Made by a program: the position numbers and the translations under genes | The notes under the pieces: generated by a model | What the model saw: the letters and a program-made list of their open reading frames with translations, nothing else | What the model was told of the DNA's origin: nothing | The model's database searches: none | Origin: Acutalibacteraceae bacterium | Lineage (GTDB): Bacteria > Bacillota > Clostridia > Oscillospirales > Acutalibacteraceae | DNA: 64,000 bases | Direction of reading: 5' to 3' | Assembly (NCBI GenBank): GCA_045541505.1 | Contig: JAZQJF010000003.1 | Location: 8,237 to 72,236 of the forward strand | Shown: piece by piece, positions 22,622-61,220 of the stretch | Position numbering within the stretch: position 1 is the stretch's first letter | Layout: every line of letters begins with the position of its first letter

Positions 22622-22772
22622 TTTAGCTATATCTCCCCGGGAATTTGCTTTATGTAGTATTTTATCACCGAAAAAAACATCCGTCAATAATATTTGCAGT
22701 TTCTTTACAAATTATTTGCTTTTACGCGAAAAAGGATATATAATGCTTTATAATAACACACGGAGGTGCGAT

Positions 22773-25138: not shown

Positions 25139-25167
25139 TTTACATTAAAATAAATCAATGCTATAAT
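25139..25167 (+). promoter_or_regulatory. sigma-A type promoter
   Basis: TTTACA at 25139-25144, a 17-nt spacer, and TATAAT at 25162-25167. Confidence 0.55.
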
Positions 25168-25238
25168 TTAAAAAAGTCTTATATTTGCACCTCAGTGCAC
25201 TATAAGATCAGAATATTATCGCGTTAGAGTCTATCTTT

Positions 25239-25281
25239 CGTCTCTGTTCAGGTTTATCACCACGAACAGAGACGTTTAATT
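25239..25281 (+). promoter_or_regulatory. 5' leader hairpin (possible attenuator)
   Basis: An 11-bp perfect stem, CGTCTCTGTTC (25239-25249) with GAACAGAGACG (25264-25274), has a 14-nt loop and is followed by TTTAATT. It lies between the promoter and the RBS. Confidence 0.4.
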
Positions 25282-25315
25282 GTCTGTGGCAACCGATTTC
25301 GCAAAGGAGATTACA

Positions 25316-27310
25316 ATGAAAAACTACAACAAGTATAAACCCCAATACTTCATGCCCCCTGTTACTACATACGATTGGGTAAAAAAAGAATACATTGACA
25401 CTCCTCCTGCCTGGTGCAGTGTTGACCTTTGTGACGGTAATCAGGCTCTTATTGAACCTATGAACCTTGAAGAAAAAATCAGTTTTTTCAAGCTTCTTGT
25501 TGAAATCGGTTTTAAAGAGATTGAAGTTGGTTTTCCCGCTGAGTCAGAGACAGACAATTTATTTATCCGCCGTCTTATTGAGGACAGACTTATCCCCGAT
25601 GATGTTACTATTCAGGTTCTTACACAGTCGGACAAATCTCTTATACGCAAAACTTTTGACGCTGTAAGCGGAGCAAAGCGTGTTATAATTCATCTTTTCA
25701 ACTCAACTTCCGTTGCTCAGCGTGAGCAAATATTTAATAAAACAAAAGAAGAAGTTAAGAAAACAGCAACTGAAGGAGCAAAGCTTCTTTTGGACATGGC
25801 AAAGAAAAGCAAGAATGTTTTCTCATTTCAGTACAGTCCCGAAGGCTTTACCGGCACTGAAATTGATTTTGCTCTTGATATCTGCAACTGCGTTCTTGAT
25901 ATATGGCATCCCACCGCAGAACACAAGGCTATTATCAATCTCCCGGCATCTGTTGAAAGCTCAATGCCGCATATTTTCGCTTCTCAGGTTGAATTTATGA
26001 GTAAAAACCTCAAATACAGAGACGGAGTTACTCTCAGCGTACACACTCATAATGACAGAGGCTGCAGTGTCTGTGATGCTGAATTTGCCGTTCTCGCGGG
26101 TGCTGACAGAATAGAAGGTTCTCTTTTCGGTAACGGAAAAAGAACCGGCAACGCTGATATTATTACGCTTGCTATGAATATGTTTTCTCACGGTATTGAT
26201 CCTAAGCTTGATTTTTCAAACATACCCGAAATAGTTCAGAAATATGAACGTTATACCGGTATGCATGTGTATGAACGCTCACCGTATGCAGGAGCTCTTG
26301 TTTTCTCTGCTTTTTCAGGCTCACATCAGGAAGCAATCACCAAAGGTATCGAATACAGAGAAGAAAACAAGCTTGATACCTGGAACGTTCCATACCTTCC
26401 CATTGACCCGATAGATGTAGGCAGAACGTACGATTCCGACGTTATCCGTATCAACAGTCAGTCAGGAAAAGGCGGAGTTGCATATATCCTTAACAGAAGC
26501 TTCGGTCTTCAGATTCCGGATAAAATGCACGACGAATTGGGCAGCACCGTTAAATCGGTATCAGACCAAGAGCATAAAGAACTTACCCCTGACCTGGTTT
26601 ACGGTGTTTTCAGCAAAAAATACATTACCAACACACCTATTTTTAAAATAACCAAAAGTGTTTTCCAGCACGATTCTGTTGTCAAGGCTGAAATTGTTAT
26701 TGAGCTTTCTTCAGGTAATGTTTTCAATGTTAAATCAGAAGGTAACGGCCGCCTTGATGCAGTTGCAAAGGCTTTACAAAAATACTTTGATGTTGAATTT
26801 GATATCGGCATTTACGAACAGCACGCTCTCACAACCGGTTCAACCTCAAAAGCTATATCATACGTTAGCATAAACGGTGACGGTAATGTATATTGGGGTG
26901 TAGGAATAGACGAGGATATTATCAAGTCGTCAATTGACGCTCTTGTAATTGCGGTAAATCAGATCAAAAAGGTTCAGGATTTTCAGGTAAACACAGACCC
27001 GAGAATTATTGAGATGATAGACTACATCAAAGATCACTATAAAACAGTTACACTCGACGAGCTTTCATCAAAATTTTTCCTTTCTAAACAATATATTTCA
27101 AAATATATTAAAGAAAAGTCAGGTCTGACTTTTTGCGATAACGTTAAAAAGGTAAGAATGAAAAAGGCTGAAGAGCTTCTCATAACAACATCCATGAATG
27201 TTGAAAAGGTAGCTGAAAGCGCAGGATATCCGAGCGTGGAGCATTTCAACCGTAGATTCAAGAAAATGCACGGGCTCACACCTGTTCAGTACAGAAACAA
27301 GAATAAATAA
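25316..27310 (+). CDS. 2-isopropylmalate-synthase-like protein (long LeuA form, including the LeuA allosteric domain) fused to a C-terminal AraC/XylS HTH domain
   Basis: The ATG at 25316 follows AAGGAGA. LeuA-type motifs occur throughout (WCSVDLCDGNQALIEPM, EIEVGFP, HTHNDRG, ADRIEGSLFGNGKRTGN, FSGSHQ, INSQSGKGG). The last ~100 aa are an AraC double HTH (SKQYISKYIKE..., GYPSVEHFNRRFKKMHGLTPVQYR). Confidence 0.85.
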   Translation: MKNYNKYKPQYFMPPVTTYDWVKKEYIDTPPAWCSVDLCDGNQALIEPMNLEEKISFFKLLVEIGFKEIEVGFPAESETDNLFIRRLIEDRLIPDDVTIQVLTQSDKSLIRKTFDAVSGAKRVIIHLFNSTSVAQREQIFNKTKEEVKKTATEGAKLLLDMAKKSKNVFSFQYSPEGFTGTEIDFALDICNCVLDIWHPTAEHKAIINLPASVESSMPHIFASQVEFMSKNLKYRDGVTLSVHTHNDRGCSVCDAEFAVLAGADRIEGSLFGNGKRTGNADIITLAMNMFSHGIDPKLDFSNIPEIVQKYERYTGMHVYERSPYAGALVFSAFSGSHQEAITKGIEYREENKLDTWNVPYLPIDPIDVGRTYDSDVIRINSQSGKGGVAYILNRSFGLQIPDKMHDELGSTVKSVSDQEHKELTPDLVYGVFSKKYITNTPIFKITKSVFQHDSVVKAEIVIELSSGNVFNVKSEGNGRLDAVAKALQKYFDVEFDIGIYEQHALTTGSTSKAISYVSINGDGNVYWGVGIDEDIIKSSIDALVIAVNQIKKVQDFQVNTDPRIIEMIDYIKDHYKTVTLDELSSKFFLSKQYISKYIKEKSGLTFCDNVKKVRMKKAEELLITTSMNVEKVAESAGYPSVEHFNRRFKKMHGLTPVQYRNKNK

Positions 27311-27315
27311 AAGAG

Positions 27316-27351
27316 TCCCTCTTACGAGCAAATCGTAAGAGGGATTTTTTT
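27316..27351 (+). terminator. Rho-independent terminator
   Basis: A 12-bp stem, TCCCTCTTACGA/TCGTAAGAGGGA, is followed by T7. Confidence 0.85.
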
Positions 27352-27366
27352 ACAATAATATGTTAT

Positions 27367-28239
27367 TTAAAACCTCACATCTGCACATATGGCAGCGTGG
27401 TCAGAAAGATACATCATTTTAATTCTTTCGTCAATGATTTTATATCTATCAACCTCAACACCTTCTGAAACAAAAATGTAATCAATCGGCTTTGTGGCAA
27501 AAACATTTAAACCGTAATCTTTATAAGTTGCACCTTTATCTGATTTTTTGGCAAGATATTTTGAGTCAGACATAAAAGAAGTCATATCATTATAGGCAGC
27601 TGAGCCCTCCTGAGAATTAAAGTCACCTGTGCACACAACGGGATAGCCCTTTGCCTTGAGCTCTCCAATTTTTGATTTTAGAACCTGAATCTGCTTTGAC
27701 TGCACCGTTTCATAATTGAAATCAAGATGTGTGTTGATATGGGTGTAAATTTTGCCTGTTGAATTGTTTTTGAGAGTTGCCCATGTTGCAATTCTCGGAC
27801 AGCCTGAGCCTTCATATCTTGAGCCGAAAACATCAGGGGTATCAGAAAGCCAGATTGTACCGCTGTCAAGAAGGGTGTATTTATCTTTTAGGTAAAATAC
27901 TGCACTGGCCTCCGCACCTTCACCTTCTTCGCGAAGTTGAGCAACACAAGCATAGTCAGTCATTTTTTCTGTCAAAATATCGAGCCACTGCTGAGTAGCT
28001 TCCTGAACACCGAAGGAGTCGGGTGCATACTGCTCAAGTGCGGCGCAGATAAGCTTACTTCTGCCCTCAACAGAGCCGTAGTCATCGTCTTTATAGCGAA
28101 CATTAAAGGAAATTATTCTGGTTGCTTCTTCTGCTTTTTCGGGTACATTTCTGATAGTAAGGTTTGCAGGACTGAAAACACCTGCAGTAAAAAGAGCAGA
28201 AAGGATAAGAGCCATAAGTTGTCTGAATGCAAAAATCAT
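27367..28239 (-). CDS. secreted endonuclease/exonuclease/phosphatase (EEP) family protein
   Basis: The ATG at 28239 lies 7 nt after GAGGAG. A signal-like N-terminus is followed by EEP features (SFNVR, QE, GDFN, SDH near the C-terminus). Confidence 0.8.
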   Translation of the reverse strand: MIFAFRQLMALILSALFTAGVFSPANLTIRNVPEKAEEATRIISFNVRYKDDDYGSVEGRSKLICAALEQYAPDSFGVQEATQQWLDILTEKMTDYACVAQLREEGEGAEASAVFYLKDKYTLLDSGTIWLSDTPDVFGSRYEGSGCPRIATWATLKNNSTGKIYTHINTHLDFNYETVQSKQIQVLKSKIGELKAKGYPVVCTGDFNSQEGSAAYNDMTSFMSDSKYLAKKSDKGATYKDYGLNVFATKPIDYIFVSEGVEVDRYKIIDERIKMMYLSDHAAICADVRF

Positions 28240-28240
28240 A

Positions 28241-28945
28241 TTAATTCTCCTCAAAATAAAATTCTTTCATATCATCAAGACGCAGAAGCATCGGGGCAAG
28301 GCCGCCCGCAGCACCTGTGTCAATGTCAATCCAGGTGTCAGTGACAATGGCTTTGCCTTTGTATTCTTCGCCGTAATAAAAAGTTGGTGTGTGTCCGAAA
28401 ACAACTGTTATATCGTCAAAATATCGCTGTGTGAGTTCAGGCCTGTTCCACAGCAAATCACGCTGGGAATATTCAGAAAGCTTTTTGTTTTTTTCAAAAG
28501 AACCGAATCCGCTGTGAGTGAGAATAAAATCCCTATCCTCTACGCTCAGTAATTCACAAACAGGCGCATCTTCAAGATATTCAAGTATGTATCTTATTTC
28601 TGAATCTCTCATTGAACGAAGGGATTCAAGGGTTGCGCAACCGCCGTTCATCACCCAGGTAGAATAATTATCAAATTCTGAGCCTGTAAGGTTCGCGATT
28701 GACTCATCGGTAATTTCATCAAAAAGAAAATCACAAGCGAGCAACATAGCCTCGTGATTGCCGAGTATCAGCTGAGCATTAGGCATCGACATTAAAAGAC
28801 GAAGCAATTTTATTCCGTCAGAGCCTCTGTCAATGACATCACCGAGAACATAGAGAAAATCATCATCGCAAAAACCGACAGAATCAAGCATTGATCTGAA
28901 TTTTTCAATGGGGTAACCGTGTAAATCAGCAGTTACATAAATCAT
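28241..28945 (-). CDS. metallophosphoesterase (PPP-family Ser/Thr phosphatase-like)
   Basis: The ATG at 28945 lies 7 nt after GAGGGG. PPP motifs are present: DLHG, GDVIDRG, GNHE, GHTP. Confidence 0.85.
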   Translation of the reverse strand: MIYVTADLHGYPIEKFRSMLDSVGFCDDDFLYVLGDVIDRGSDGIKLLRLLMSMPNAQLILGNHEAMLLACDFLFDEITDESIANLTGSEFDNYSTWVMNGGCATLESLRSMRDSEIRYILEYLEDAPVCELLSVEDRDFILTHSGFGSFEKNKKLSEYSQRDLLWNRPELTQRYFDDITVVFGHTPTFYYGEEYKGKAIVTDTWIDIDTGAAGGLAPMLLRLDDMKEFYFEEN

Positions 28946-28963
28946 ATCATCACCCCTCGGGTA

Positions 28964-28992
28964 ATTATAGCTCAAAATTTCTTTTCTGTCAA
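28964..28992 (-). promoter_or_regulatory. possible sigma-A promoter (TTGACA, 17 nt spacer, TATAAT)
   Basis: The hexamers are perfect on the minus strand, but the -10 box is only ~6 nt from the RBS, so the leader would be extremely short. Confidence 0.4.
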
Positions 28993-29040
28993 AATATATT
29001 TAAATTGTTTTATCAGTATTTCTGACGGTACTCACTCCAA

Positions 29041-29074
29041 AAGAAAAAATGCAAACGACACCCCGAAGGATGCC
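29041..29074 (-). terminator. second, strand-specific hairpin with UUCG loop and U-tract
   Basis: The minus-strand RNA reads GGCAUCC-UUCG-GGGUGUC followed by GUUUGCAUUUUUUCUUUU. Two G.U pairs make the stem valid only on the minus strand. Confidence 0.45.
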
Positions 29075-29113
29075 TTATTTCCGTATTAAATTCCCAAGCG
29101 ATTGGGATTTTGG

Positions 29114-29148
29114 GTATAAAACTCGGGAGAGGTCGTTTGACCCCTCCC
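29114..29148 (-). terminator. Rho-independent terminator after the immunity gene
   Basis: The minus-strand stem GGGAGGGGUC/GACCUCUCCC (one G.U pair) is followed by GAGUUUUAUA. Confidence 0.6.
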
Positions 29149-29181
29149 ATACAAAAGCAAATGAGCTTTTTGATATTCAGT

Positions 29182-29478
29182 TTAATCCTCAAACCTTATA
29201 CTGATGGTCTGGTCTTCCATGGACCATAATGCCCATTTAAAGAAATCTGCCCATGAATCATCAACCTTAGAATCTTCCCACAAAGGTTTAAATTCATCTT
29301 CCTTTTCTTTTGGAATAAGCCACCCCATCATATCCTCGCCTTCCATCGAAGATGTTTCAAAATCATTACCATCTCCGGCATCAGCGAAAAAAATCATTCC
29401 CAAACGCTCCGCTTCATTCTGTATTAAAGCAAAAAATACATTGAACTTATCGCTTTCTTGCGTTCTTAACCCTTTCAT
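29182..29478 (-). CDS. acidic 98-aa protein, putative cognate immunity protein of the adjacent toxin remnant
   Basis: A perfect AAGGAGG lies 8 nt upstream of the ATG. The gene overlaps the 3' end of the toxin ORF by 32 nt. The protein is very acidic and Trp-rich, and its own terminator follows. Confidence 0.55.
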   Translation of the reverse strand: MKGLRTQESDKFNVFFALIQNEAERLGMIFFADAGDGNDFETSSMEGEDMMGWLIPKEKEDEFKPLWEDSKVDDSWADFFKWALWSMEDQTISIRFED

Positions 29479-30066
29479 TGTTGATGCCTCCTTTCAAGAT
29501 AGTAATAAATTCACCATTTTGTTTTGTTATGACAACATCTTCACCCTTAATAAAAAACAAAACATCTTCCGCTTGACCTCGCCAAGACCCGATGCGCTTC
29601 TCTTGTACCTTATAAACAATATCATTGATAATTGTTTTAAACTTAGCTCTTCCTTCAGGCGTTGTTGGGTCTAAATCAAATTCCGGTGCGTGTTTTCCGA
29701 CTTTTTTGCCAAACTGTTTGTCTGACACTGATAGCTTGATGTTATCCTCTCTCATTATACCACTATTTTCAGAATTTGCAATAGCTTGTGTGCTTTCAAG
29801 GGCGGTTTCAGCCTCTTTCAGCTTTCTTCGGGGGTGTATTCAAAATCATCAAGCTCGGGATAATGGGTTGCACAGCCGTGTCGGCAGTTGGGATGAAACA
29901 ATCCTGCTCCCATTGCCGTTGACATCAGCATATAATCGCCGTCAGAGGGCTTTCCGCCCGAATAGACATCATCAATAAGGATTTTACCTTCAAAGGTTCT
30001 GCAAAGCTCACAGGCGGTACATATGTTTCTGTCAAAATTTTCTTCTTTGCATAGAATGATAACGGA
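29447..30066 (-). pseudogene. 5'-truncated, frameshifted MuF(SPP1 gp7)-type polymorphic toxin with a colicin-D/BECR-like C-terminal domain
   Basis: Region 30066-29818 translates without a start codon to ...NFDRNICTACELCRTFEGK...GLFHPNCRHGCATHY...EYTPEES*. A shifted frame is open from 29839 and reads KLKEAETALEST...MREDNIKLSVSDKQFGKKVGKHAPEFDL... to 29447. The internal ATG at 29755 has no RBS. Confidence 0.6.
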
Positions 30067-30099
30067 TTAATATCCTATCAAAAATAAAGGAGAAATGTT

Positions 30100-30315
30100 A
30101 TGAATTATTCACCTGCTTCAAAGCAAGCGGGCGGAGCTGTATGTGTTCGCAATGACTTTCACGTTGCTATCACGCCGCTCCCCGCTGACCCTGTCGTTGC
30201 AATGGCTTATGTGCCGTTTCAGACCGACACCAATACCTACCCTGAAATGCAGGCACTTGCCTGCGGTACACTTTTTCCGTGCCTTAACAAGCCTTTCAAA
30301 GGTCGTGGGGCATAA
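30100..30315 (+). CDS. cotJA: spore coat-associated protein CotJA
   Basis: AAGGAG RBS, 71 aa, with the MAYVPFQ...LFP.L.KPF motif. It is the first gene of a cotJABC-like operon. Confidence 0.85.
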   Translation: MNYSPASKQAGGAVCVRNDFHVAITPLPADPVVAMAYVPFQTDTNTYPEMQALACGTLFPCLNKPFKGRGA

Positions 30316-30569
30316 TGGTTGACAAAAGAAATATGAGCACACAGCTTTCTGCAGTTCAGTTTGCGATGTGGGAGCTTCACCTTTACCTTGACACTCACCC
30401 TGAAGACATCAGCGCACTTAAACTCTATAACAAGTATGAAGAAAAATATTGTGCCCTGCTTGATGAATACGAATCAAAATTCGGTCCGTTATATTCAACA
30501 AGAGGCACTCCCGGTGTAAGATGGCTTAAAAATCCGTGGCCCTGGGATTATGAAGGAGGCAATTGCTGA
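30315..30569 (+). CDS. cotJB: spore coat protein CotJB
   Basis: 84 aa with FAMWELHLYLDTHP, typical of CotJB. Its start overlaps the cotJA stop. Confidence 0.85.
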   Translation: MVDKRNMSTQLSAVQFAMWELHLYLDTHPEDISALKLYNKYEEKYCALLDEYESKFGPLYSTRGTPGVRWLKNPWPWDYEGGNC

Positions 30570-31165
30570 TGTTTGTTTATGAAAAAAAGCTTCAATACCC
30601 TGTAAAGATTACTAACCCGAACCCCAAGTATGCACAGATAATTATAAGTCAGTACGGCGGCCCTGACGGTGAGTTGGGCGCATCGTTGAGATACCTCAGC
30701 CAGCGTTATTCAATGCCGTACGCCGAGCTTAAAGGTCTTTTGACCGACGTGGGCACGGAAGAACTTTCTCATCTTGAGATGATCGGTGCAATTGTTTATC
30801 AGTTAACACGAAATTTATCTCCCGATGATATAAAAAAATCGGGATTTGACGCATATTTTGTTGACCACACAACAGGTGTTTACCCTACAGCTGCAAGCGG
30901 TTTTCCATGGAGCGCTGCAAGCATGCAGTCAAAAGGCGACCTGATAACAGACCTTCACGAAAACCTTGCTGCAGAACAAAAAGCAAGAACTACCTACGAT
31001 AATATTCTCCGCCTTGTGGATGACCCTGACGTACGTGAACCTATCAAATTCTTAAGAGCAAGAGAAATTGTTCATTATCAGCGATTCGGTGAAGGTCTCC
31101 GCCTCGCAACAGACCGGCTGGACAGCAAAAATTTCTACGCATTTAACCCAAGCTTTGATAAATAA
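30569..31165 (+). CDS. cotJC: CotJC, manganese-catalase-family spore coat protein
   Basis: The ATG at 30569 overlaps the cotJB stop (TGATG), and GAAGGAGG lies 9 nt upstream. Motifs QYGGPDGELGASLRYLSQR and EELSHLEMIG are present. Confidence 0.9.
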   Translation: MFVYEKKLQYPVKITNPNPKYAQIIISQYGGPDGELGASLRYLSQRYSMPYAELKGLLTDVGTEELSHLEMIGAIVYQLTRNLSPDDIKKSGFDAYFVDHTTGVYPTAASGFPWSAASMQSKGDLITDLHENLAAEQKARTTYDNILRLVDDPDVREPIKFLRAREIVHYQRFGEGLRLATDRLDSKNFYAFNPSFDK

Positions 31166-37034: not shown

Positions 37035-40000
37035 TTAAAACTTAACCTTGAAGTTTTTGATTTCAAAGGGTTTAGCTGTAAACGAGATTGTGTTGCCGCT
37101 AAATTCAACGGGAACATCATTACGCTCAATCAGATCACACTCTGCAGCATAAGTAATATCAGCAAAGAGTGAAACTGTTGCCTTAGTTGTTCTGCCGGTC
37201 TTTTCAACCATACGAACAATGTAAGCATCCTCTTCTTCACATTTCTTAACTGCTTCAAGAGTTATATTGTCACAGTCAAGGTTGATGAATGAGCCGATCA
37301 TCTCTCCGTCACCCGTAGGTGTTGCGCAAACGAGAGGATTGTTGATTTCAAGACCCATTGTGAGAGTCTTTGCATGTTTCCAGTCATTAGCGTGAGGATA
37401 AAGTGAATATGTGAAGTAATGCTCACCTCTGTCAGAAGTGGGGTCGGGCTTGATGGGAGCTTTAAGAAGAGTGAGAATCATCTTATGCTCGTTAACCTCG
37501 TGACCGTACTTACAGTCGTTAAGAAGGCTTACTCCGTAATCAGTGTCAGACATATCGATCCAGTTATGAGCATTAACCTCAAACTTTGCTTTATCATAAG
37601 GATTATAGCGGTATGAGCTGCATTCCATAGTTGCATAAGCAATGTCTCTTGTGTAATTCTTTGTCTGAAGGTCAACATCGAAGAACACTTTGAGAAGCTT
37701 CTGGTTTTCGTGCCAGCTGATGTGAGTATCAAAGTCAATACGGTCAATTTCATTATAAATAATAATGTTCTGGTGAATTACAGATTTGAGAATTTCTTTC
37801 TCAATAGTAATCATTGTGTAAACATCGCCTGAAACGATTGATTTAACAACGCCGTCTTTAACTTCATATTCACGGTCAACATATGTAGCAACAATATCCC
37901 AAGCATCATAAGCACCGGGCATATCTTCAAAGAGTCTGAAGTCATTACCCTTGCCGCCCTCTGACAATACTTCTCTGTTATTAACCTTGTCATAAATTGA
38001 AACAAGAACAGCTTTATCATCAAGAGTAAGAGCAAAGAAATCGTTTTCAATCTTTGTGCCTGTGCATTCGGTAAGCTTACGCTCTGCCTTTGCAGGAGCC
38101 TTATAGTAAACCTTATAGCCTACTGCGGGAACATCCTTGGCAACAAAGAGAAGCTTTTTATCGCCGTTGGGCTTTGTATAAGCCTGAACATCAACAGGGT
38201 TTCCGTTTTCATCAAAGATATCAACATCCTGATAATCAAGCTCAACCTTTGAAGTTGAAGCAACTGCAAGTGAATTGAAGAGAACAAACGGTGTGCCTAT
38301 AGAAGCATCAAAGCCGATCTTCTTGCTGATAACTGCAAGAGCATCAGCGCGAACTTTTTCACCTGTTGCGATAACTTCATCATAAATGCCCATCAATTTG
38401 CCGAAAACTTCAGTAATATGAGTGCCGGGCAATGAATCGTGGAACTGGTTTGTGAGAATCTTTTTCCAACCAGCTTCAAGCTCAAGGCGAGGATATTCGT
38501 AACCGTACTGCTCTGCAATTGTTGCATACATCTCAGCCTGACGGTAGAGATTTTCACAGTATCTGTTAGCCTTTTTAAGAGCTGCTTTTGTTGTGTGGAC
38601 GCCGCGATGCTCTTCAAGATAAAGCTCATCTTTCCAGGTAACAACCTTATCACCTGCTTTGATAGCCTTCTGTTTCATACTCTCAAGAGAATCTTCGATC
38701 TTGCAGGCTCTTGTTTCGGGAAGACCGGGGAAGTTTTTATAACGCTTAACGTATTCAAGCATTTCAGCGTCAACACCGCCGCCACCGTCACCCCAGCCGT
38801 AGCAATACATTGACTCACCGATTGTATCTTTATCGGTGTATTTAATCCAGTTTGTTTTAAGTGAATCGGGTTCCATTGAACCGATGAAATGTGTGGGAGG
38901 TACAGCTGCAAATACTTTTGAGCCGTCGGGACCTTCCCACCAGAAAGAGTTATAAAGCCAGGGGTTGGTATCGTTCCAGATACCCATTTATGAGTAACGA
39001 AATATTCCATACCTGCTTTTTTCATAATCTGGGGCATACAGTAGCTGTTACCGAAAACGTCAGGCAACCAGCAGGTTTTGGGAGTTACGCCAAACCATTT
39101 TTCTGCGTAGCGCACACCGTGAAGGAACTGACGGACAAAGGATTCACCTGAAATAATGTTACAGTCAGGCTCTACCCACATACCGCCGATATATTCCCAT
39201 CTGCCCTCTTTAACTCTCTGCTGAACCTGCTCAAAGAGGTTTGGATAGTGGATACGCATTTCTTCATACATACCTGCCTGGCTCTGTGAGAAGATAAAGT
39301 CATCGTACTGCTCCATAAGGCGAAGCATTGTAGCGTGAGTACGGCCGACCTTACGGACGAACTCTTTATAAGCCCACATATAAACCATATCAAGATGTGA
39401 GTTACCGATAAGGTCAAGCTGACCCATGCATTTATAGTTGGGGTTATTATAAACTCTGTCGTGAAGAACTTTTTTACACATTCTGAGTTTTGCCTTGAAT
39501 ACCTCAAAATCAGGCTCATCAAAGTCAACATACTGGAATGCTTCTTTAAGAGACTCACGGATAAGAGTGCCGTAGTCATTATTCATACCGGGGATGAAAA
39601 GAGCATTGAATACGGCCTTCAGATCCCAGTAAATGTCGCTGATTTCATCATCAGTTGTAGCGATGAATGAGCATTCAAGCTTTTTGAGAGTGCTTTCGTT
39701 TGAATGCCATACAAAATATGACTCAACGTCAATATCAAACTCCTCGCCTGCTTTTGCACATTCGGTAAGAGTAACGGCGTTACGGAAGGGGTCAAGACCC
39801 TGATAAGGAACACCGTTAACAGAAACAAGTGAGTCACCGCCGAAGTAAATGTAGAGAGTAACTCTCTGACCTGCGAACTTCTCGGGGATAACAATTTTGT
39901 TTTTAAAGAAAGCACTAAGGCCGTTACCGCCCCAGTAGTCACCTACCTTAAGCTCTTTCCAGCCGTCGTAAAGATATTCATACTCACCGATTTCTTTATA

Positions 40001-40201
40001 AATGCACTCTCGCATCTGCCATGAGCCTGTGTTTTCAAAGTCGGTGTAAATTCTCTTTTTCAGTGTTTTTAATTTAATCTCGGCGAGTTCATCAAAAGCA
40101 AAAATACCTCTCTGCTTGTTTTTGATAATGTCACGCCAGGTGTCAATATGAGCGTCCATACCTTCGGTTGAAGGAACAGTCTTTTTCTCGTTCTCTGACA
40201 T
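37035..40201 (-). pseudogene. GH38 alpha-mannosidase interrupted by a single frameshift (or an assembly homopolymer error)
   Basis: The N-terminal ORF (start ATG 40201, AAGGAG RBS) is GH38-like up to ...GMEYFVTHK and then becomes meaningless. The frame starting at 38987 continues with GIWNDTNPW..FWWEGPDGS, the expected GH38 sequence. The junction is the A3 run at 38987-38989 (read on the minus strand). Confidence 0.85.
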
Positions 40202-40242
40202 AATTTCAACTCCTTTTAGATTTATTGAAAACAAATCAATTT

Positions 40243-57300: not shown

Positions 57301-57853
57301 GGAAAGCACGTGAACTGTTGTAAAGAGAAATAATCATATCGGCAAGGGCTCCGTCATTGCTGCCTGAAACGAGCAAATCCAGAAGCTTACGGAATTCCGG
57401 TGAATTCTCTTTATAAGCCTGTTCAATCACCTTATCAACAGCCTCGCCCATCATAAGGCTTAACTGCGACTGTTCAAGAAGTTTAAAATCAGGTGAGATA
57501 CCCAGTTGCTGAAAATTCTCTCTTACAAGCTTACCGCAAAAGCCGTCAATTGTGCTTATATTTGCAAATGGTAATAACATCCTCTGCCTTATGAGATGTT
57601 CGTTTTCAGGATTTTCTTCAAGACGTTTATCAAGTGCAGCTGCGATTTTTTCTTTCATCTGAGCTGTTGCCGCTTTAGTAAAGGTTACGATAAGAAGCCT
57701 GTCTGCCGAGCAGGGATTTTCTTCATCTTCAAGACGGCGGATTACCCTTTCAACAAGAACGGTTGTTTTGCCTGAGCCTGCCGCAGCAGATACAAGTATA
57801 GTGCCGTTTCTTGAATCAATCGCCTGTTGCTGTTCCTTCGTCCACTTTGGCAT
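54359..57853 (-). CDS. addA: ATP-dependent helicase/nuclease AddA
   Basis: The UvrD-like helicase carries GSGKT Walker A, and the C-terminus has a RecB-family nuclease (GYIDCAF...DYKTD). The start is ATG 57853, with GTG 57862 as an alternative. Confidence 0.9.
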   Translation of the reverse strand: MPKWTKEQQQAIDSRNGTILVSAAAGSGKTTVLVERVIRRLEDEENPCSADRLLIVTFTKAATAQMKEKIAAALDKRLEENPENEHLIRQRMLLPFANISTIDGFCGKLVRENFQQLGISPDFKLLEQSQLSLMMGEAVDKVIEQAYKENSPEFRKLLDLLVSGSNDGALADMIISLYNSSRAFPYPEKWLDKIVESYENCTSAGESVWGKIIIENIRYMILYCLELSCSAADVISKDDPENAEKYQELFGYYQSFFQEYLNVIDAGNWEDICSYPSAFESGRIPRTKTRYAFRAKAIKAEIVNIVTKRLPKLFCCNEEEFLDDIKYSLPIVKKIVELVKNFKNEFFVLKKMSDGADFSDVVDYTIQLLVEKTDENGNPVKTDLAKEISKSFDEILVDEFQDINETQNLLFKAVSDDEKNLFMVGDVKQSIYRFRQAMPGIFLERREKLEPYEDGNYPAKINLDYNFRSRKGVADFVNYTFSRLMSKTAGELEYDESEQLKAKAEYSPKSCADAELHIITDPVNKVSRTFEAEYIAQYIKNAIDSGLTVKDGDSERKVSYRDFCILLRSPKGKADIYAGVLNEAGVPCHVTTANGFFDATEIKTALAMIRTVDNPQQDIPLVTTMLSPSFGFTPDELASLRIDSRKTSFYTCVKNAANNGNKKCKSFLDCLDILRTLSATLGAGDFVRELFEVTGYDALVCAMPGGSQRRANLSLLLDYAEKYEQAGHIGISGFIRFVDRVEKRQGDMEIANEISESADVVRIMSIHKSKGLEFPVCILADCSTKFNDDFLRSGIIFNPQHGIAFRRVESYRKFDTLAFKAIQLEEQRATRSEELRVLYVALTRAKERLVCVLREDNPDKKLSAVASLITGNKINPFRVISSGNMGDWLILAASDHPDFSAKREEPMPFIDFNSELKLKVELFEDFPKNEAEAEEIKYPEPDEELMKLLEDRLNFTYPYGNLSEIVAKVSPSQLEAQQESMRYFASSKPNFALDSGVSSASKGTAVHKFMEFYDYTADLDVKEQAKLMVKNKKLSPEEEGVLDYDSLSRFFDSETAKEIAASEILVREKKVTFTVNAAEIYPEIESESANEPIVVQGYIDCAFIRNGKWVIVDYKTDRVNDVNILKDRYSAQLRMYERALKECTGIDVESTIIYSLHLGKTVNL

Positions 57854-60800
57854 TCTCTTCACCGTCCTTTCTGTTATTGAGCTTATCGAAACATTGAGAA
57901 TCAGGATAGCTTACAATTTCTTCACTCATATCACCTGATTCAAAACCGCACACGCTTTTATAATCGCAATATTGACAAGCATCTTTATAAGCTGAGTTTG
58001 AATTCAGACTGAATACAGGCCTTGCAGGGATTTCGCCGTTATGAAGGCAATCTCCCATTTTTCTTAAAATATCTTCTACCTTTTGGCTGAGAAGATTCAT
58101 TTCTTTAATGCCGATAAGACTGCCTGAAAAGGTGCACTTCTCTTCATCATATTTTACAGGAATAAACATTCCTGATTTTTCACTGTCCATTCCGATAATG
58201 ACTCTGGAATCATCAAGCACCATACCGTTCATTCTGCAGTCAAGCATCTGCTGAGTTAGTACCTGCTCATCGCTTGCATCTCTGCCGAGATTTGTATTTG
58301 TAGCTTTAACAGGCATATATAATACACCTGCAGGTGTAATATTTTCATACTTGCCTGTGCCGTTTTTCCAGATAGAAAAAAGATAAATCAGCATCTGCAT
58401 ATTTAACCCGTAAAAAACATCGCTGAGCTGAAAATTCTTTCCACCCGATTTGTAGTCAACAACCCTGACAAATTTTTTGCCGTCAAGGTCCATCATATCG
58501 ACACGGTCCACTGAGCCCTTAAGCTTGATTGAGCCGCCTTGAGTCAAGTCAACAACAAACGGTTTGACTTCACTGTCGTTGTCAATTTTCAGCTCAAAAT
58601 CAACAGGCACAAACTCGCTGACGGCAAACTCACGCACAAGACGTTTAGCCACAGAACAGACGGTTTTTCCAAGATTCATATAGAGATAGTTAAACCTCTC
58701 GCTATGCTCCTGATCGGCGCTCATATTAGTTCGGAAATATAAATCAAGAAGCGCCATAACCTTTTCGTCTATTTCTTCATCAGTCATTTTACAAAGAGCT
58801 TCGCTGCCGTTAGTTTTAATAAGCATTTCCAGAATGTAATGAATTACCGTACCTCTTTGCATCGGGTCAAGCTCTGCAGATCTTGGGGCAGATGCCTGAA
58901 TTCCGTATTTGCAGAAATACTCAAAGGGGCATTTGAAATAAGTTTCAACTCTTGTTGCCGACATATACATATCTTCACCGAAGAGTTTTCGTGCAATATT
59001 TATATCTTCAATAGCAAATTCTTCTTTATCTGCTGCACGTCTGAGGGCCTTAAGACGGTTTCTGAATTCAGACAAAGCACCGAAATACTCTTTAAGGGTC
59101 TGAGTAACGGTGTCACTGTTTTTCCACCCTTTTGCCATAATTTCAAATGCGGCATCAGCACTTCTGAGATATTCTTTTTTATCAACAAGGGAAGTATCAC
59201 TCTCTCTGATTTCAGGAAAGATCTTTTTAATCTGTGAAACTAATTCAGATGGGGCAGTTTCTTCACCGGTCAGGCTTTTGGCGCAATAAGATAAGTAAAG
59301 CCTGTCTTTTGCACCGCACAAAGTTTTATATGAAATAAATCGTTCTTCCATAACATCTTCATCAGCATCCTGACCGAGATCAACACCAAAATCCTTGAGC
59401 TGACGGCGGTCATTACGGGAAAGAACTTTTTTATTAAGCTGAACATACGGAAAAACTCCATCGTTAACGCCAAGAGCAAAAATAACATTTGGTGATGACG
59501 TGAGAACTCTGTCAGCAGCACCTATCATTACCTCATCAAGACCGACAGGCAAAGCACCGATAGTGTAGCGTGAAACCATTGTATTAAAAAGTTCACCGAA
59601 ACGTTTGGCATTAAGCTGAGTATTTTTCAGAACAGAGGCTGTATCGTTAAGAATACTGATAAGTATATCCCATATTCTGCCCTGCTCTGCGGCAAGTTCA
59701 ATTTCACCTTTACTGCTTAGTTCAATTGCAATATTTTTAAGATTATGAGCAACGTTGAAGCTCACAAGAAGATCATACACGGCTTTGGCAGCAGCCTGAC
59801 CGTCAGCAGATTTCAACGCATTTCGGAACACAGAAAGAGGATATGTCACAGCTTTTCTTGTTGCATTTATTCTTTCAAGAATTTCCATATGCTTTTCAAG
59901 CATTTCGTTACCTAAACCGTCAGGGTGGCCCTTGAAATCATCACACCAGCGCGAGCCGTTGATTTTCCACATAACAACGTAGTTTTCAAGTGTGGAAATA
60001 TCATGAGAGGAAATACCCGTAAGCCCTGTTTTAAGTAATCTCAAAACATCTTCGACACTGAATCCGTCGGCTGCAATTTTAACCGCTGAATTTACAAAAT
60101 TGATAAGCGGCTGAGTCATAATAGGCTGACGCTTATCAACATAAACGGGAACTCCGAATTTTTTAAGACTCGCTTTTATTTTGCTTTCATAGGTTGTTCC
60201 GTCACGGCTGATAACTGCAATATCACGGCAACGGTAACCGCATTCACTGATAAGGTATTTAATCTGTGAGGCAACCCAATCACATTCGTCAGCTATACTT
60301 GAACCTCGGCAGACAGCTATGCTTTCAGGCGCACCGCTCCATCTCTCAGGTACAATTGAATACAACTGCTTTTCAAGGTGAGAAATTTCGGGTGAATTAT
60401 AATAGTCGCTTTTTTCAGCAGTGATTATTTCAACCGGAGGCATAGAGCATTTTTCATTAACTGAGAGCAGCTTACGTGCTGTTCTGCGTGTGTGTGCAAA
60501 AACACTGTTTTTTTCAAAAAGTCCTGTCACTTTATCAGTGCAAACCGATATATATAAATCTTTTGCACGAGGTAAAATATCTGAGATTATTTTAATTTCC
60601 TGGGCTGTGAAGCCTCTGAAACCATCAATAAAAACAGTTTTATTATTAAACCAATCAATGTTGTTAATTACATTATGTAAACGGTCAAGTGAAGTCTCAT
60701 CATCAAAATAGCTTTGTTCAAGCAAGGCATCGTATGCCCCTGAAATCAATGAAAGCTCATAAATTTTACTTTTCAACACACCGTCTTTCATTTTATCACT

Positions 60801-61220
60801 GCACTCTGAAAGGGCATCAGACGAAACGGAGCATTGACGGAATTCCTTGAGCATACCAAGAATTTCTGTTATAAATCCTTGGGTATATTTAGATTTTGAA
60901 TACATCTCCAGTTTATCACTCACCTGCTCAAGAGCAAGAGACATTACAACAGCACGTATGCTGTCATTAATTTCGGGAAGAACTGAATTATCAAACATCT
61001 TAAGTAAATGTTTAGCAAGAAAAGTGAAACTGAACACACTTACTTTATCAGCTTTTTCTGCCCCCATCTGAACAACTATATTCTTTTCTGTTTCAAATGA
61101 ATATTGCTCAGGAACAATAAGAAGAATGTCTCTTTCCCCTGAGTCAACACGCTTTTCAATTTCAGAATAAATCCTTTGAGTTTTTCCGCATCCGATGCGT
61201 CCGATAATCAAATGAAGCAC
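57816..61220 (-). CDS. addB: helicase-nuclease AddB
   Basis: The N-terminus has GRIGCGKT. The C-terminus has nuclease and Fe-S cysteines (C..C..C, DYKSG). The 3' end overlaps the addA start. Confidence 0.9.
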   Translation of the reverse strand: MLHLIIGRIGCGKTQRIYSEIEKRVDSGERDILLIVPEQYSFETEKNIVVQMGAEKADKVSVFSFTFLAKHLLKMFDNSVLPEINDSIRAVVMSLALEQVSDKLEMYSKSKYTQGFITEILGMLKEFRQCSVSSDALSECSDKMKDGVLKSKIYELSLISGAYDALLEQSYFDDETSLDRLHNVINNIDWFNNKTVFIDGFRGFTAQEIKIISDILPRAKDLYISVCTDKVTGLFEKNSVFAHTRRTARKLLSVNEKCSMPPVEIITAEKSDYYNSPEISHLEKQLYSIVPERWSGAPESIAVCRGSSIADECDWVASQIKYLISECGYRCRDIAVISRDGTTYESKIKASLKKFGVPVYVDKRQPIMTQPLINFVNSAVKIAADGFSVEDVLRLLKTGLTGISSHDISTLENYVVMWKINGSRWCDDFKGHPDGLGNEMLEKHMEILERINATRKAVTYPLSVFRNALKSADGQAAAKAVYDLLVSFNVAHNLKNIAIELSSKGEIELAAEQGRIWDILISILNDTASVLKNTQLNAKRFGELFNTMVSRYTIGALPVGLDEVMIGAADRVLTSSPNVIFALGVNDGVFPYVQLNKKVLSRNDRRQLKDFGVDLGQDADEDVMEERFISYKTLCGAKDRLYLSYCAKSLTGEETAPSELVSQIKKIFPEIRESDTSLVDKKEYLRSADAAFEIMAKGWKNSDTVTQTLKEYFGALSEFRNRLKALRRAADKEEFAIEDINIARKLFGEDMYMSATRVETYFKCPFEYFCKYGIQASAPRSAELDPMQRGTVIHYILEMLIKTNGSEALCKMTDEEIDEKVMALLDLYFRTNMSADQEHSERFNYLYMNLGKTVCSVAKRLVREFAVSEFVPVDFELKIDNDSEVKPFVVDLTQGGSIKLKGSVDRVDMMDLDGKKFVRVVDYKSGGKNFQLSDVFYGLNMQMLIYLFSIWKNGTGKYENITPAGVLYMPVKATNTNLGRDASDEQVLTQQMLDCRMNGMVLDDSRVIIGMDSEKSGMFIPVKYDEEKCTFSGSLIGIKEMNLLSQKVEDILRKMGDCLHNGEIPARPVFSLNSNSAYKDACQYCDYKSVCGFESGDMSEEIVSYPDSQCFDKLNNRKDGEENAKVDEGTATGD

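Follow-up and report, generated by a model that had tools for sequence, protein, structure and literature searches.

A gene that reads as a 2-isopropylmalate synthase (IPMS; LeuA) over most of its length, ends in the DNA-binding domain of a transcription factor and carries a cysteine at the position of a catalytic arginine raises the question whether it encodes an enzyme, a regulator or a relic of either. The gene lies at 25316-27310 on the + strand of a stretch of 64,000 nucleotides from an Acutalibacteraceae bacterium (GenBank assembly GCA_045541505.1, contig JAZQJF010000003.1, positions 8,237 to 72,236 of the forward strand). This stretch at its full length is called the window, and all coordinates refer to it unless another locus is named. 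The product of 664 amino acids, referred to as the window protein, consists of a long-form isopropylmalate synthase body followed by an AraC-type DNA-binding domain. The reading that we favour, with moderate confidence, is that the gene encodes a catalytically disabled LeuA scaffold which has been retained as an effector-sensing AraC regulator.

Domain architecture of the window protein

A Pfam profile search of the 664-residue product with curated cut-offs resolved the following domains:

25409..26236, + strand, residues 32-307: HMGL-like TIM barrel, the catalytic domain (E=3.6e-61, 207 bits)
26297..26494, + strand, residues 328-393: IPMS_D2 post-catalytic linker subdomain (109 bits)
26585..26965, + strand, residues 424-550: LeuA_dimer allosteric/dimerisation domain, also called the regulatory domain below (84 bits)
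27062..27298, + strand, residues 583-661: HTH_18, the AraC/XylS double helix-turn-helix (HTH) (66.4 bits, cut-off 33.6)
Residues 623-661, + strand: HTH_AraC (38.2 bits, cut-off 26.6)

The scores of HMGL-like, IPMS_D2 and LeuA_dimer also exceed their cut-offs. The domain order HMGL-like, IPMS_D2, LeuA_dimer, HTH_18 is thereby confirmed, and so is the assignment of the C-terminal ~100 residues to an AraC HTH, both of which an initial annotation had proposed from the letters of the sequence. Alignment to Mycobacterium tuberculosis LeuA (PDB 1sr9; E=5e-140) is collinear over residues 20-550 with ~48% identity, and the AraC HTH follows this LeuA body. The HTH tail of the protein matches solved AraC-family DNA-binding domains, namely XylR (4fe4), YesN (3lsg), AraC (2k9s), MarA and Rns.

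The AlphaFold2 model, with a mean pLDDT of 85.8, predicts all three parts confidently and places seven confident helices at residues 562-663. Its best structural matches in Foldseek are chains of M. tuberculosis LeuA, and among the structural matches listed no PDB entry reaches past the LeuA body into the HTH. The LeuA_dimer motifs SEGNGRLDAV, YEQHALTTGS and WGVGID are conserved. When compared with NCBIfam models, the window protein scores above the cut-off of the subfamily model NF002991 (741.7 bits vs 455) and below that of the equivalog TIGR00970 (618.8 vs 697.4). A ribosome-binding site (AAGGAG, 25304-25309) is located 6 nt ahead of the ATG at 25316. The TTG at 25280 was considered as an alternative start and rejected as implausible, as it sits in the T tail just 3' of the leader hairpin.

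A family of LeuA-AraC fusions with intact active sites

The same five-domain architecture is present in all 120 best database homologues, which are 61-83% identical to the window protein. The fusion occurs in at least 120 protein clusters and, in a scan of species-representative genomes, at about 40 loci. It was found in Lachnospiraceae (Butyrivibrio, Roseburia, Dorea, Hespellia, Wujia and others), in Acutalibacteraceae, in Anaerovoracaceae and in a metagenome-assembled genome (MAG) labelled Oscillospiraceae, and protein-database searches added an Acetobacterium homologue. Databases name the members of this family, if at all, only '2-isopropylmalate synthase' (e.g. in Hespellia stercorisuis, Lachnobacterium bovis and Acetobacterium paludosum). 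A chimeric assembly or a missed stop codon at the junction was rejected as an explanation of the architecture, since the same junction recurs in more than 120 independent homologous clusters and at about 40 genome loci.

The residues R80, D81, H167, Y169, E218, T254, H285, H287, E317 and H379 (M. tuberculosis LeuA numbering, as in the following) are kept in 119/119 other fusion proteins, and all canonical genome loci likewise keep the catalytic residues (19 of 19 active-site residues checked). The possibility that the substitutions of the window protein travel with the HTH was rejected, as none of the 119 others carries them. In the initial annotation, a synthase scaffold already compromised was thought to have become the sensor of a transcription factor. 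In this form the proposal did not survive, because the fusion predates the substitutions and is distributed far more widely than they are. Since the other 119 fusion proteins keep their catalytic residues, the window gene is rather a lineage-specific derivative of an enzyme that already bore the HTH.

The nine closest relatives (79-84% identity) come from Acutalibacteraceae or 'Clostridia' MAGs. A T-box leader (RF00230) precedes the fusion gene in 9/9 of them and also at several Lachnospiraceae loci. In the nine it is recognised either by its score (118-126 bits) or by a TGGTACCGCG motif with a GAA-CUC specifier, and scores across relatives range from 118 to 137 bits. In the specifier loop of the relatives, a CUC (Leu) codon stands right after GAA. 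Because of the intact catalytic residues and the leucine T-box control in the closest relatives, the canonical members are likely to be working LeuA enzymes. They are probably LeuA enzymes with a DNA-binding tail and thus candidates for trigger enzymes, a group in which PutA, BirA and NadR combine catalysis with transcriptional control. The ancestral and typical state is thus a putatively competent, leucine-regulated LeuA with an AraC domain. In the full-text literature searched, no description was found of LeuA-AraC fusions, of an IPMS as trigger enzyme or of an IPMS pseudoenzyme, which agrees with the earlier remark that no characterised example of the architecture is known to its author.

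Two further observations concern the relation between fused and unfused forms. An unfused LeuA of 553 amino acids is encoded in an Acutalibacteraceae MAG (DOME_MAG_6032, locus L057, 1528-3189). It shares 64% identity with the window protein, its catalytic residues are intact, and its gene follows a leucine T-box of its own. Such leuA genes without an HTH could be the working enzyme in Acutalibacteraceae where the fused copy has decayed. At five other loci (L028, L032, L033, L034 and L035), which belong to a single lineage of related MAGs, a homopolymeric A run lies exactly at the LeuA/HTH junction, about 1650 nt into the gene (about 7125-7145 in L032). Ten A residues (L028) give an in-frame fusion of 662 amino acids; with nine (L032, L034) or eight (L033, L035), the LeuA reading frame stops at ...AAKKN* and the HTH lies in another frame. 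This variation could be a homopolymer assembly error, or it could let the gene switch, by phase variation or transcriptional slippage, between a form that is enzyme only and one that is enzyme and regulator.

Active-site substitutions in the window protein

The window protein differs at 6/19 active-site positions checked. Its changes in the active-site region are located as follows, all on the + strand:

25430-25432 (TGT): Cys39, aligned to Arg80; the relatives have CGT
25697-25699: F128, Tyr169Phe
25844-25846: G177, Ser219Gly
25949-25951: S212, Thr254Ser
26138-26140 (AAA): Lys275, aligned to Glu317; the motif reads GNGKRTGN
26330-26332: E339, Asp381Glu, in the linker just past the barrel

The Arg-to-Cys and Glu-to-Lys changes had already been read from these codons, and the alignment to M. 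tuberculosis LeuA verified both; the four other changes (Tyr169Phe, Thr254Ser, Ser219Gly and Asp381Glu) had been overlooked. The metal ligands Asp81, His285 and His287 are retained as D40, H243 and H245, again as described before, and the Glu218/His379 pair is kept as E176 and H337. Gln84, Asn83 and His167 are likewise retained.

In total, 13 changes in the window protein fall on columns that are invariant in the 119 other fusion proteins, among which the next-highest count is 3 and the median is 0. All 13 are located in the catalytic domain (R80C, E/D121, R147D, H149S, I150L, A164V, Y169F, V180I, G208N, S219G, T254S, E317K and D381E). Most of them are single-nucleotide changes from the codons of the relatives. 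Two of them, R147D (AGA to GAC) and G208N (GGC to AAT), need three nucleotide changes each, and for this reason sequencing error was ruled out and the 13 changes are regarded as evolved differences.

Both positions named in the initial annotation were said to be near-invariant, and a wider sample agrees with this. In addition to their conservation in the 119 fusion proteins, Arg80 is kept in 100/111 and Glu317 in 138/147 of the aligned sequences from 150 diverse 50%-cluster representatives, and lysine at position 317 was never found among the 147. Representatives without Arg80 carry several further active-site losses. Among unfused proteins of ~555 amino acids, Arg80 plus other catalytic residues are lost in P0134, P0182, P0223, P0227, P0236, P0260 and P0264, and the HTH-fused P0124 and P0210 are also without Arg80 plus other catalytic residues. 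Degenerate IPMS-like proteins thus appear to have arisen repeatedly, with and without an HTH.

The consequence of losing the arginine is known from homologues. In M. tuberculosis IPMS, R80A and R80K are inactive (PMC10464499). In methylthioalkylmalate synthase (MAMS), R89A, R89K and R89Q are inactive and T257S remains active, and the arginine is called invariant and essential across the DRE-TIM superfamily; this superfamily is functionally diverse, and every characterised reaction class in it requires the arginine (PMC11532901). As mutagenesis of this arginine in homologues kills catalysis, we infer a loss of activity for the window protein.

Evolutionary rates by domain

Pairwise dN/dS, the ratio of non-synonymous to synonymous substitution rates, is about 0.08, a rough value since dS is saturated (>1.1 between all relatives). 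Relative-rate, site-class and BLOSUM tests were used in place of branch-specific dN/dS.

Between the window protein and its closest relative (P0002), identity is 78.9% in the catalytic domain, 86.2% in the regulatory domain and 93.3% in the HTH; between P0002 and P0003/P0004 it is 91-92%, 80-83% and 93-94%, respectively. In neighbour-joining trees, the terminal branch of the window protein measures 0.200 (catalytic), 0.109 (regulatory) and 0.062 (HTH), and the corresponding branches of L001/L006 measure 0.036/0.042, 0.043/0.087 and 0.049/0.043. The catalytic-domain branch is thus ~5-fold longer than those of the relatives, and the regulatory and HTH branches are near normal. Tajima's unique changes, counted for the window protein vs P0002, are 67 vs 5 in the catalytic domain, 11 vs 2 in the regulatory domain and 6 vs 1 in the HTH. 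Not one of the invariant columns is changed in the regulatory domain (0/26) or in the HTH (0/18).

A neighbouring gene provides a reference for the rate of the genome:

22773..25106, + strand: GH78 alpha-L-rhamnosidase gene, directly upstream of the fusion gene

The syntenic GH78 of the window is 80-82% identical to those of these relatives and 63% identical to that of L001, and the L001 fusion protein is 92% identical to the relatives in its catalytic domain despite this divergent GH78. The acceleration is therefore specific to the fusion gene, mainly to its catalytic domain, and not genome-wide. The part of the initial annotation that spoke of a catalytically compromised scaffold is therefore supported from two sides: the arginine is indispensable in homologues, and constraint has been lost in the catalytic domain and kept in the regulatory domain and the HTH.

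Decay of the T-box leader

The region around the coding sequence contains the following elements:

25139..25167, + strand: near-consensus sigma-70-type promoter, TTTACA (25139-25144), 17-nt spacer and TATAAT (25162-25167), with TG before the -10 (11/12 match)
25176..25315, + strand: leader RNA, a remnant of a leucine T-box (from alignments; fold -41.6 kcal/mol, z-score -3.85)
25239..25282, + strand: retained T-box terminator hairpin, arms 25239-25249/25264-25274, with the T-rich tail TTTAATTG
27316..27351, + strand: intrinsic terminator 3' of the coding sequence, 12-bp stem (hairpin 27316-27344) and T run, seemingly bidirectional

The gap between GH78 and the fusion gene is about 430 nt in the relatives and 209 nt in the window. 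The alignment shows that ~220 nt have been deleted, and with them the native promoter, Stem I including the specifier loop, and Stem II. The block that corresponds to the present promoter reads TTTAGA...TTTTGG in the relatives, and point changes gave the promoter of the window; a match this good has a probability of 0.015 in shuffles of the 209-nt intergenic region. Within the leader, the inner stem of a 5' hairpin (25176-25208) looks like a remnant of Stem III. Degraded T-box sequence, AGAATATTATCGCG, is found at 25210-25223, where the relatives have AGAGTGGTACCGCG. The T-box sequence itself has changed from AGAGUGGUACCGCG to AGAAUAUUAUCGCG, by which the UGG pairing with the tRNA 3' end is destroyed; UAUUAUC now stands in place of the UGGUACC that binds the tRNA acceptor. 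In the terminator arms, 1/22 positions is changed relative to the relatives, with the stem strengthened (U.G to U-A), whereas the adjacent T-box segment differs at 9/32 (Fisher p=0.028 for the contrast). A search of the window leader for RF00230 or any other known RNA gave no match at the gathering score, and no T-box match at E<=10.

The own promoter, the 3' terminator and the leader hairpin reported by the initial annotation were all found to be real. The hairpin, taken there for a separate leader element, is the leftover terminator of a degraded T-box and not a novel leader. Control by tRNA-Leu is gone, and a constitutive promoter now feeds the leftover terminator. In the Acutalibacteraceae clade, the T-box is intact in 9/9 canonical loci and in 0/7 decayed loci.

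Decayed and transitional orthologues

Loss of the active site is not confined to the window. A clade of 12 clusters (P0271-P0282), called the dead clade here, has lost 11-15/19 active-site residues, including Arg80 and all metal ligands. Recurrent replacements are Q84R, H167N, H285R and H287S/C, and D81N/E also occurs. One of its members (MCQ2472478.1) is annotated by NCBI merely as 'helix-turn-helix domain-containing protein'. The loci of this clade are L044, L047, L060, L061 and L063. In them, only 18-33 nt separate GH78 from the start of the fusion gene, which is devoid of a leader.

Mean pairwise identity within the dead clade is 48% in the catalytic domain, 63% in the regulatory domain and 79% in the HTH, and among canonical proteins it is 79.5%, 56% and 63%, so that the order in which the domains are conserved is inverted. 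The dead clade keeps 44/169 invariant columns in the catalytic domain, 17/26 in the regulatory domain and 17/18 in the HTH. Glu317 is retained even here and for this reason probably has a structural role.

Transitional forms were found as well. P0283 (H379Q) has 29 invariant-site changes, and at its locus (L062) a gap of 95 nt without a T-box follows GH78; P0284 (D81G, H379Y) has 43. The number of invariant-site changes thus rises from 0-3 in canonical proteins to 13 in the window protein, 29 and 43 in the two transitional proteins and more than 120 in the dead clade. Of the 13 changes of the window protein, 11 coincide with columns at which the dead clade, too, has lost its constraint, 82 columns in total (Fisher p=0.0065).

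The GH78 tree places the window within canonical lineages that bear a T-box; the dead clade forms a monophyletic group in another part of the tree, where L062 is its sister. The regulatory and HTH trees also group the window with canonical lineages. As the window and the dead clade sit apart in the GH78 tree, at least two independent losses are required. The HTH and the regulatory/dimerisation domain are the parts preserved by selection whenever catalysis decays. To judge from their sequences, the dead-clade orthologues show the end state, which has persisted for long under purifying selection.

Relaxed constraint and the pseudogene alternative

The best of the alternatives, although unlikely, is that the gene is a relic becoming a pseudogene. 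LeuA would no longer be needed because of leucine uptake or another leuA, the whole gene including the HTH would be decaying, and the reading frame would be intact because the loss is recent. This would account for the destroyed T-box, with a leader terminator left without an antiterminator, and for the burst of 13 invariant-site changes. In the same direction point the unique changes, in which all three domains exceed the sister lineage, and a GH38 gene elsewhere in the window that appears to be split, a possible sign of decaying genes or of errors in the assembly.

The distribution of the changes speaks against such a general decay. The ~5-fold acceleration is confined to the catalytic domain, the regulatory and HTH branches stay near those of the relatives, and the 44 invariant columns of these two domains are untouched. 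In the catalytic domain itself, 13 of the 70 lineage-specific changes hit invariant columns, compared with 30.4 expected under a uniform distribution (p=1e-5). These 70 changes are conservative: their BLOSUM62 scores average +0.63, whereas random missense mutation of the ancestral codons would give -0.44 (p=3e-7). Indels are absent and so are stop codons, the latter an outcome with P=0.025 if 70 nonsynonymous hits had been neutral. Because the changes avoid conserved sites, are conservative, include no stops or indels and leave the 44 invariant columns intact, wholesale pseudogenisation is disfavoured. The pattern fits a catalytic domain that is relaxed and not neutral, with a subset of its constraints released. 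A decaying gene is also at odds with the gain of a near-consensus promoter and with the long persistence of the dead-clade orthologues under purifying selection.

Possible residual or altered catalysis

Somewhat less probable again is a still-working isopropylmalate synthase or a bifunctional trigger enzyme, in which Cys39 and Lys275 would be a compensated active-site rearrangement in a fast-evolving housekeeping leuA. The retained metal ligands, Glu218, His379, Gln84 and Asn83 would be expected of such an enzyme, as would the NF002991 score above cut-off and the confidently predicted fold. In addition, the replacements of Tyr169, Thr254 and Asp381 are conservative, and the lysine in place of Glu317 brings a positive charge close to the top of the barrel, where it might in principle do the work of Arg80. 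On the other side, the arginine is described as invariant across the DRE-TIM superfamily, and even its replacement by lysine kills M. tuberculosis IPMS and MAMS (PMC10464499, PMC11532901). Lysine is never seen at position 317 among the 147 diverse representatives, and the glutamate there is kept even in the dead clade, so that its role is probably structural. The TIGR00970 score is below the equivalog cut-off, the catalytic domain is accelerated 5-fold at sites that overlap those released in the dead clade, and the leucine-responsive T-box control kept by all nine close relatives has been lost.

A neo-functionalised enzyme, in which the altered barrel performs another metal-dependent reaction (on another keto acid, or of the lyase type) with the HTH as a passenger, is very improbable: the metal site is kept, the pocket lining is changed (Tyr169Phe, Thr254Ser, Ser219Gly) and the DRE-TIM superfamily is functionally diverse, but every characterised reaction class of it needs the arginine (PMC11532901), partner pathway genes are absent nearby, the changes coincide with sites decaying in the dead clade and form no new conserved pattern, and the allele is unique to one genome.

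Proposed retention of the LeuA scaffold as a regulator

For the favoured reading, a catalytically disabled scaffold that serves as an AraC-type regulator, the changes in the gene line up as follows. A deletion of ~220 nt took away the native promoter together with the tRNA-sensing half of the T-box, and a near-consensus constitutive promoter arose upstream. The catalytic barrel lost the constraint specific to catalysis, with Arg80Cys and 12 other changes at family-invariant positions, while the leucine-binding regulatory/dimerisation domain and the HTH stayed under normal purifying selection. Going by the mutagenesis of homologues, the window protein most likely no longer makes isopropylmalate. 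It would persist as a dimeric, effector-sensing AraC-type transcription factor with predicted DNA binding, in which the LeuA dimer supplies dimerisation and effector binding for two AraC domains.

The most economical candidate for the effector is leucine, bound in the regulatory domain; a metal together with a keto acid in the still-liganded pocket is possibly another. The leucine-pocket motifs of M. tuberculosis LeuA, which we take to be GNGPLAA and YYEHAMSAG, correspond to GNGRLDAV and YEQHALTTG in the window protein, and these two region motifs are conserved in the canonical, window and dead forms. A candidate target would be the adjacent deacetylase/GH78 promoter, which is a lead only.

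Several points weigh against this reading. The rates of the regulatory domain and the HTH are also mildly raised, by roughly 1.3-2 fold. About 20 canonical Lachnospiraceae loci with intact active sites are also without a T-box, so its absence alone is not diagnostic, and the gene could be largely silent, given a leader terminator without an antiterminator. Both the metal ligands and the Glu218/His379 pair are still present, and the changes from Tyr to Phe, Thr to Ser and Asp to Glu are mild; the protein may therefore have residual or altered chemistry, and Lys275 might partly replace the lost charge of Arg80. The window allele is known from one genome assembly only. A search of the window for TTAAAAAACTCACTT, a conserved upstream block of the relatives, gave 9 hits vs 7.9 expected and hence no regulon signal.

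Comparison with known systems

With M. tuberculosis LeuA (PDB 1sr9, 3fig, 3hps), the window protein shares the TIM barrel, the linker subdomains, the beta-beta-beta-alpha regulatory/dimerisation domain, the metal ligands and the Glu/His pair. It differs in having Cys for Arg80, Lys for Glu317, Phe for Tyr169 and Ser for Thr254, and in the additional AraC HTH of ~100 amino acids. With the canonical LeuA-AraC fusions it shares the five domains, is collinear over ~660 amino acids at 61-84% identity and, in the closest of them, has the GH78-adjacent locus in common; these proteins have 19/19 active-site residues and, in the Acutalibacteraceae clade, a leucine T-box, whereas the window has 6/19 changed and a T-box remnant.

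Features shared with the dead clade (P0271-P0282) are the deacetylase-GH78-fusion locus, the lack of a functional T-box, an HTH that is about 73% identical, the regulatory motifs and the released catalytic constraint. Unlike the dead clade, the window protein keeps D81, H285, H287, Q84 and H167, and its gene has a 209-nt leader region with its own promoter. The dead clade is a separate, older lineage, and the window nests among canonical ones. The window leader resembles the leucine T-box leaders of leu/ilv genes in Firmicutes (RF00230) in its 3' part, where it is homologous to the T-box sequence and the terminator of its relatives, but Stem I and the specifier are missing and a covariance-model match is absent at E<=10.

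Likeness to trigger enzymes such as PutA, BirA and NadR lies, by analogy, in a metabolic enzyme physically joined to a DNA-binding function, by which a regulator could sense metabolite status directly. Here, a DRE-TIM enzyme of Claisen condensation is combined with an AraC/XylS domain, and of these two halves the enzymatic one has probably been lost in the window copy. AraC/XylS regulators with sensors other than a cupin (XylR with a periplasmic-binding-protein fold, 4fe4/4fe7, and the YesN-type receiver-AraC 3lsg) likewise consist of an N-terminal ligand-sensing or dimerising module and a C-terminal double HTH. The sensor of the window protein would differ from theirs in being a complete LeuA body of 560 amino acids, of which the literature searched holds no description. 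Taken as a LeuA, the window protein lacks the catalytic arginine; taken as an AraC/XylS protein, it has the predicted DNA-binding domain of this family. In function it probably resembles trigger enzymes and enzyme-derived regulators that are built from other enzyme and DNA-binding families.

Locus and candidate operator

GH78 precedes the fusion gene in every Acutalibacteraceae-type locus examined, canonical, transitional and dead. It is divergent from a polysaccharide deacetylase gene, and the genes downstream of the fusion vary among loci. Between the two divergent genes lies a conserved motif:

22660..22687, + strand: candidate operator, bipartite TTYTANCAC-N12-15-GTCAA, in the divergent deacetylase/GH78 promoter region

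Each locus has a single copy of the motif, which lies about 30-60 nt ahead of the -35 element of GH78. Downstream of it, a conserved GH78 promoter (TTGCTT-17-TATAAT) is located at 22716-22744 of the window. The motif is also found upstream of GH78 in L007-L010, L044, L047, L052, L053, L060, L062 and L063, and is thus present in all GH78-fusion loci with upstream sequence to compare, except L001. Its conservation extends to genomes in which the GH78 proteins share only about 62% identity. The motif is a candidate regulator-binding site, which adjacency alone ties to the fusion protein.

The initial annotation had placed the gene among glycosidases, away from leuBCD. In agreement with this, leuBCD or ilv genes are absent among the 40 annotated open reading frames of at least 150 amino acids in the window, with 57816-61220 outside the scan. 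The region 95-40234 is rich in glycoside hydrolases and sugar transporters (GH28, GH106-like, GH95, GH2, GH5, GH78, GH29, GH38, MFS transporters and the polysaccharide deacetylase), which points to a locus degrading plant or host glycans rich in rhamnose and fucose. A GH38 alpha-mannosidase in it (37035-40234, - strand) is split into two overlapping open reading frames, one at 38675-40234 with the N-terminal half of the GH38 N domain and one at 37035-38987 with the rest. This suggests a frameshift, by which the gene is either a pseudogene or subject to an assembly error.

The downstream side is rearranged between the window and L001. In L001 (10953-20271), CotJA, CotJB and a Mn-catalase are located directly 3' of the fusion gene, and an Exo_endo_phos/Metallophos pair is 8 kb away. 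In the window (27367-31165), this pair is directly 3' of the fusion gene, and the Mn-catalase lies at 30563-31165.

Implications for gut Clostridia

A wider reading is put forward only tentatively. LeuA-AraC fusions may form an undescribed class of leucine-pathway trigger enzymes in gut Clostridia, in which the LeuA dimer reads leucine or its keto-acid substrate and signals directly to the AraC domain. In Acutalibacteraceae, this class may have been converted at least twice independently to a pseudoenzyme transcription factor at the GH78 locus, with the window gene as an early intermediate and the deacetylase/GH78 promoter as a possible target. If this is true, amino-acid status would be coupled to glycan degradation via this promoter, and a complete enzyme of amino-acid biosynthesis would be the sensor module of an AraC factor, which would be a new kind of regulator.

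One locus also offers a graded series for the study of pseudoenzyme evolution, by which the order of events becomes testable. In the proposed order, T-box control would be lost first, followed by the catalytic arginine or histidine and then by the metal site, with the DNA-binding domain kept throughout.

The family is abundant in gut Lachnospiraceae and Oscillospirales, yet labelled only '2-isopropylmalate synthase'. With an NF002991 score above the cut-off, annotation pipelines would call the window gene, and probably others, a functional LeuA, and metabolic reconstructions of gut MAGs that build on such calls would predict leucine prototrophy in error.

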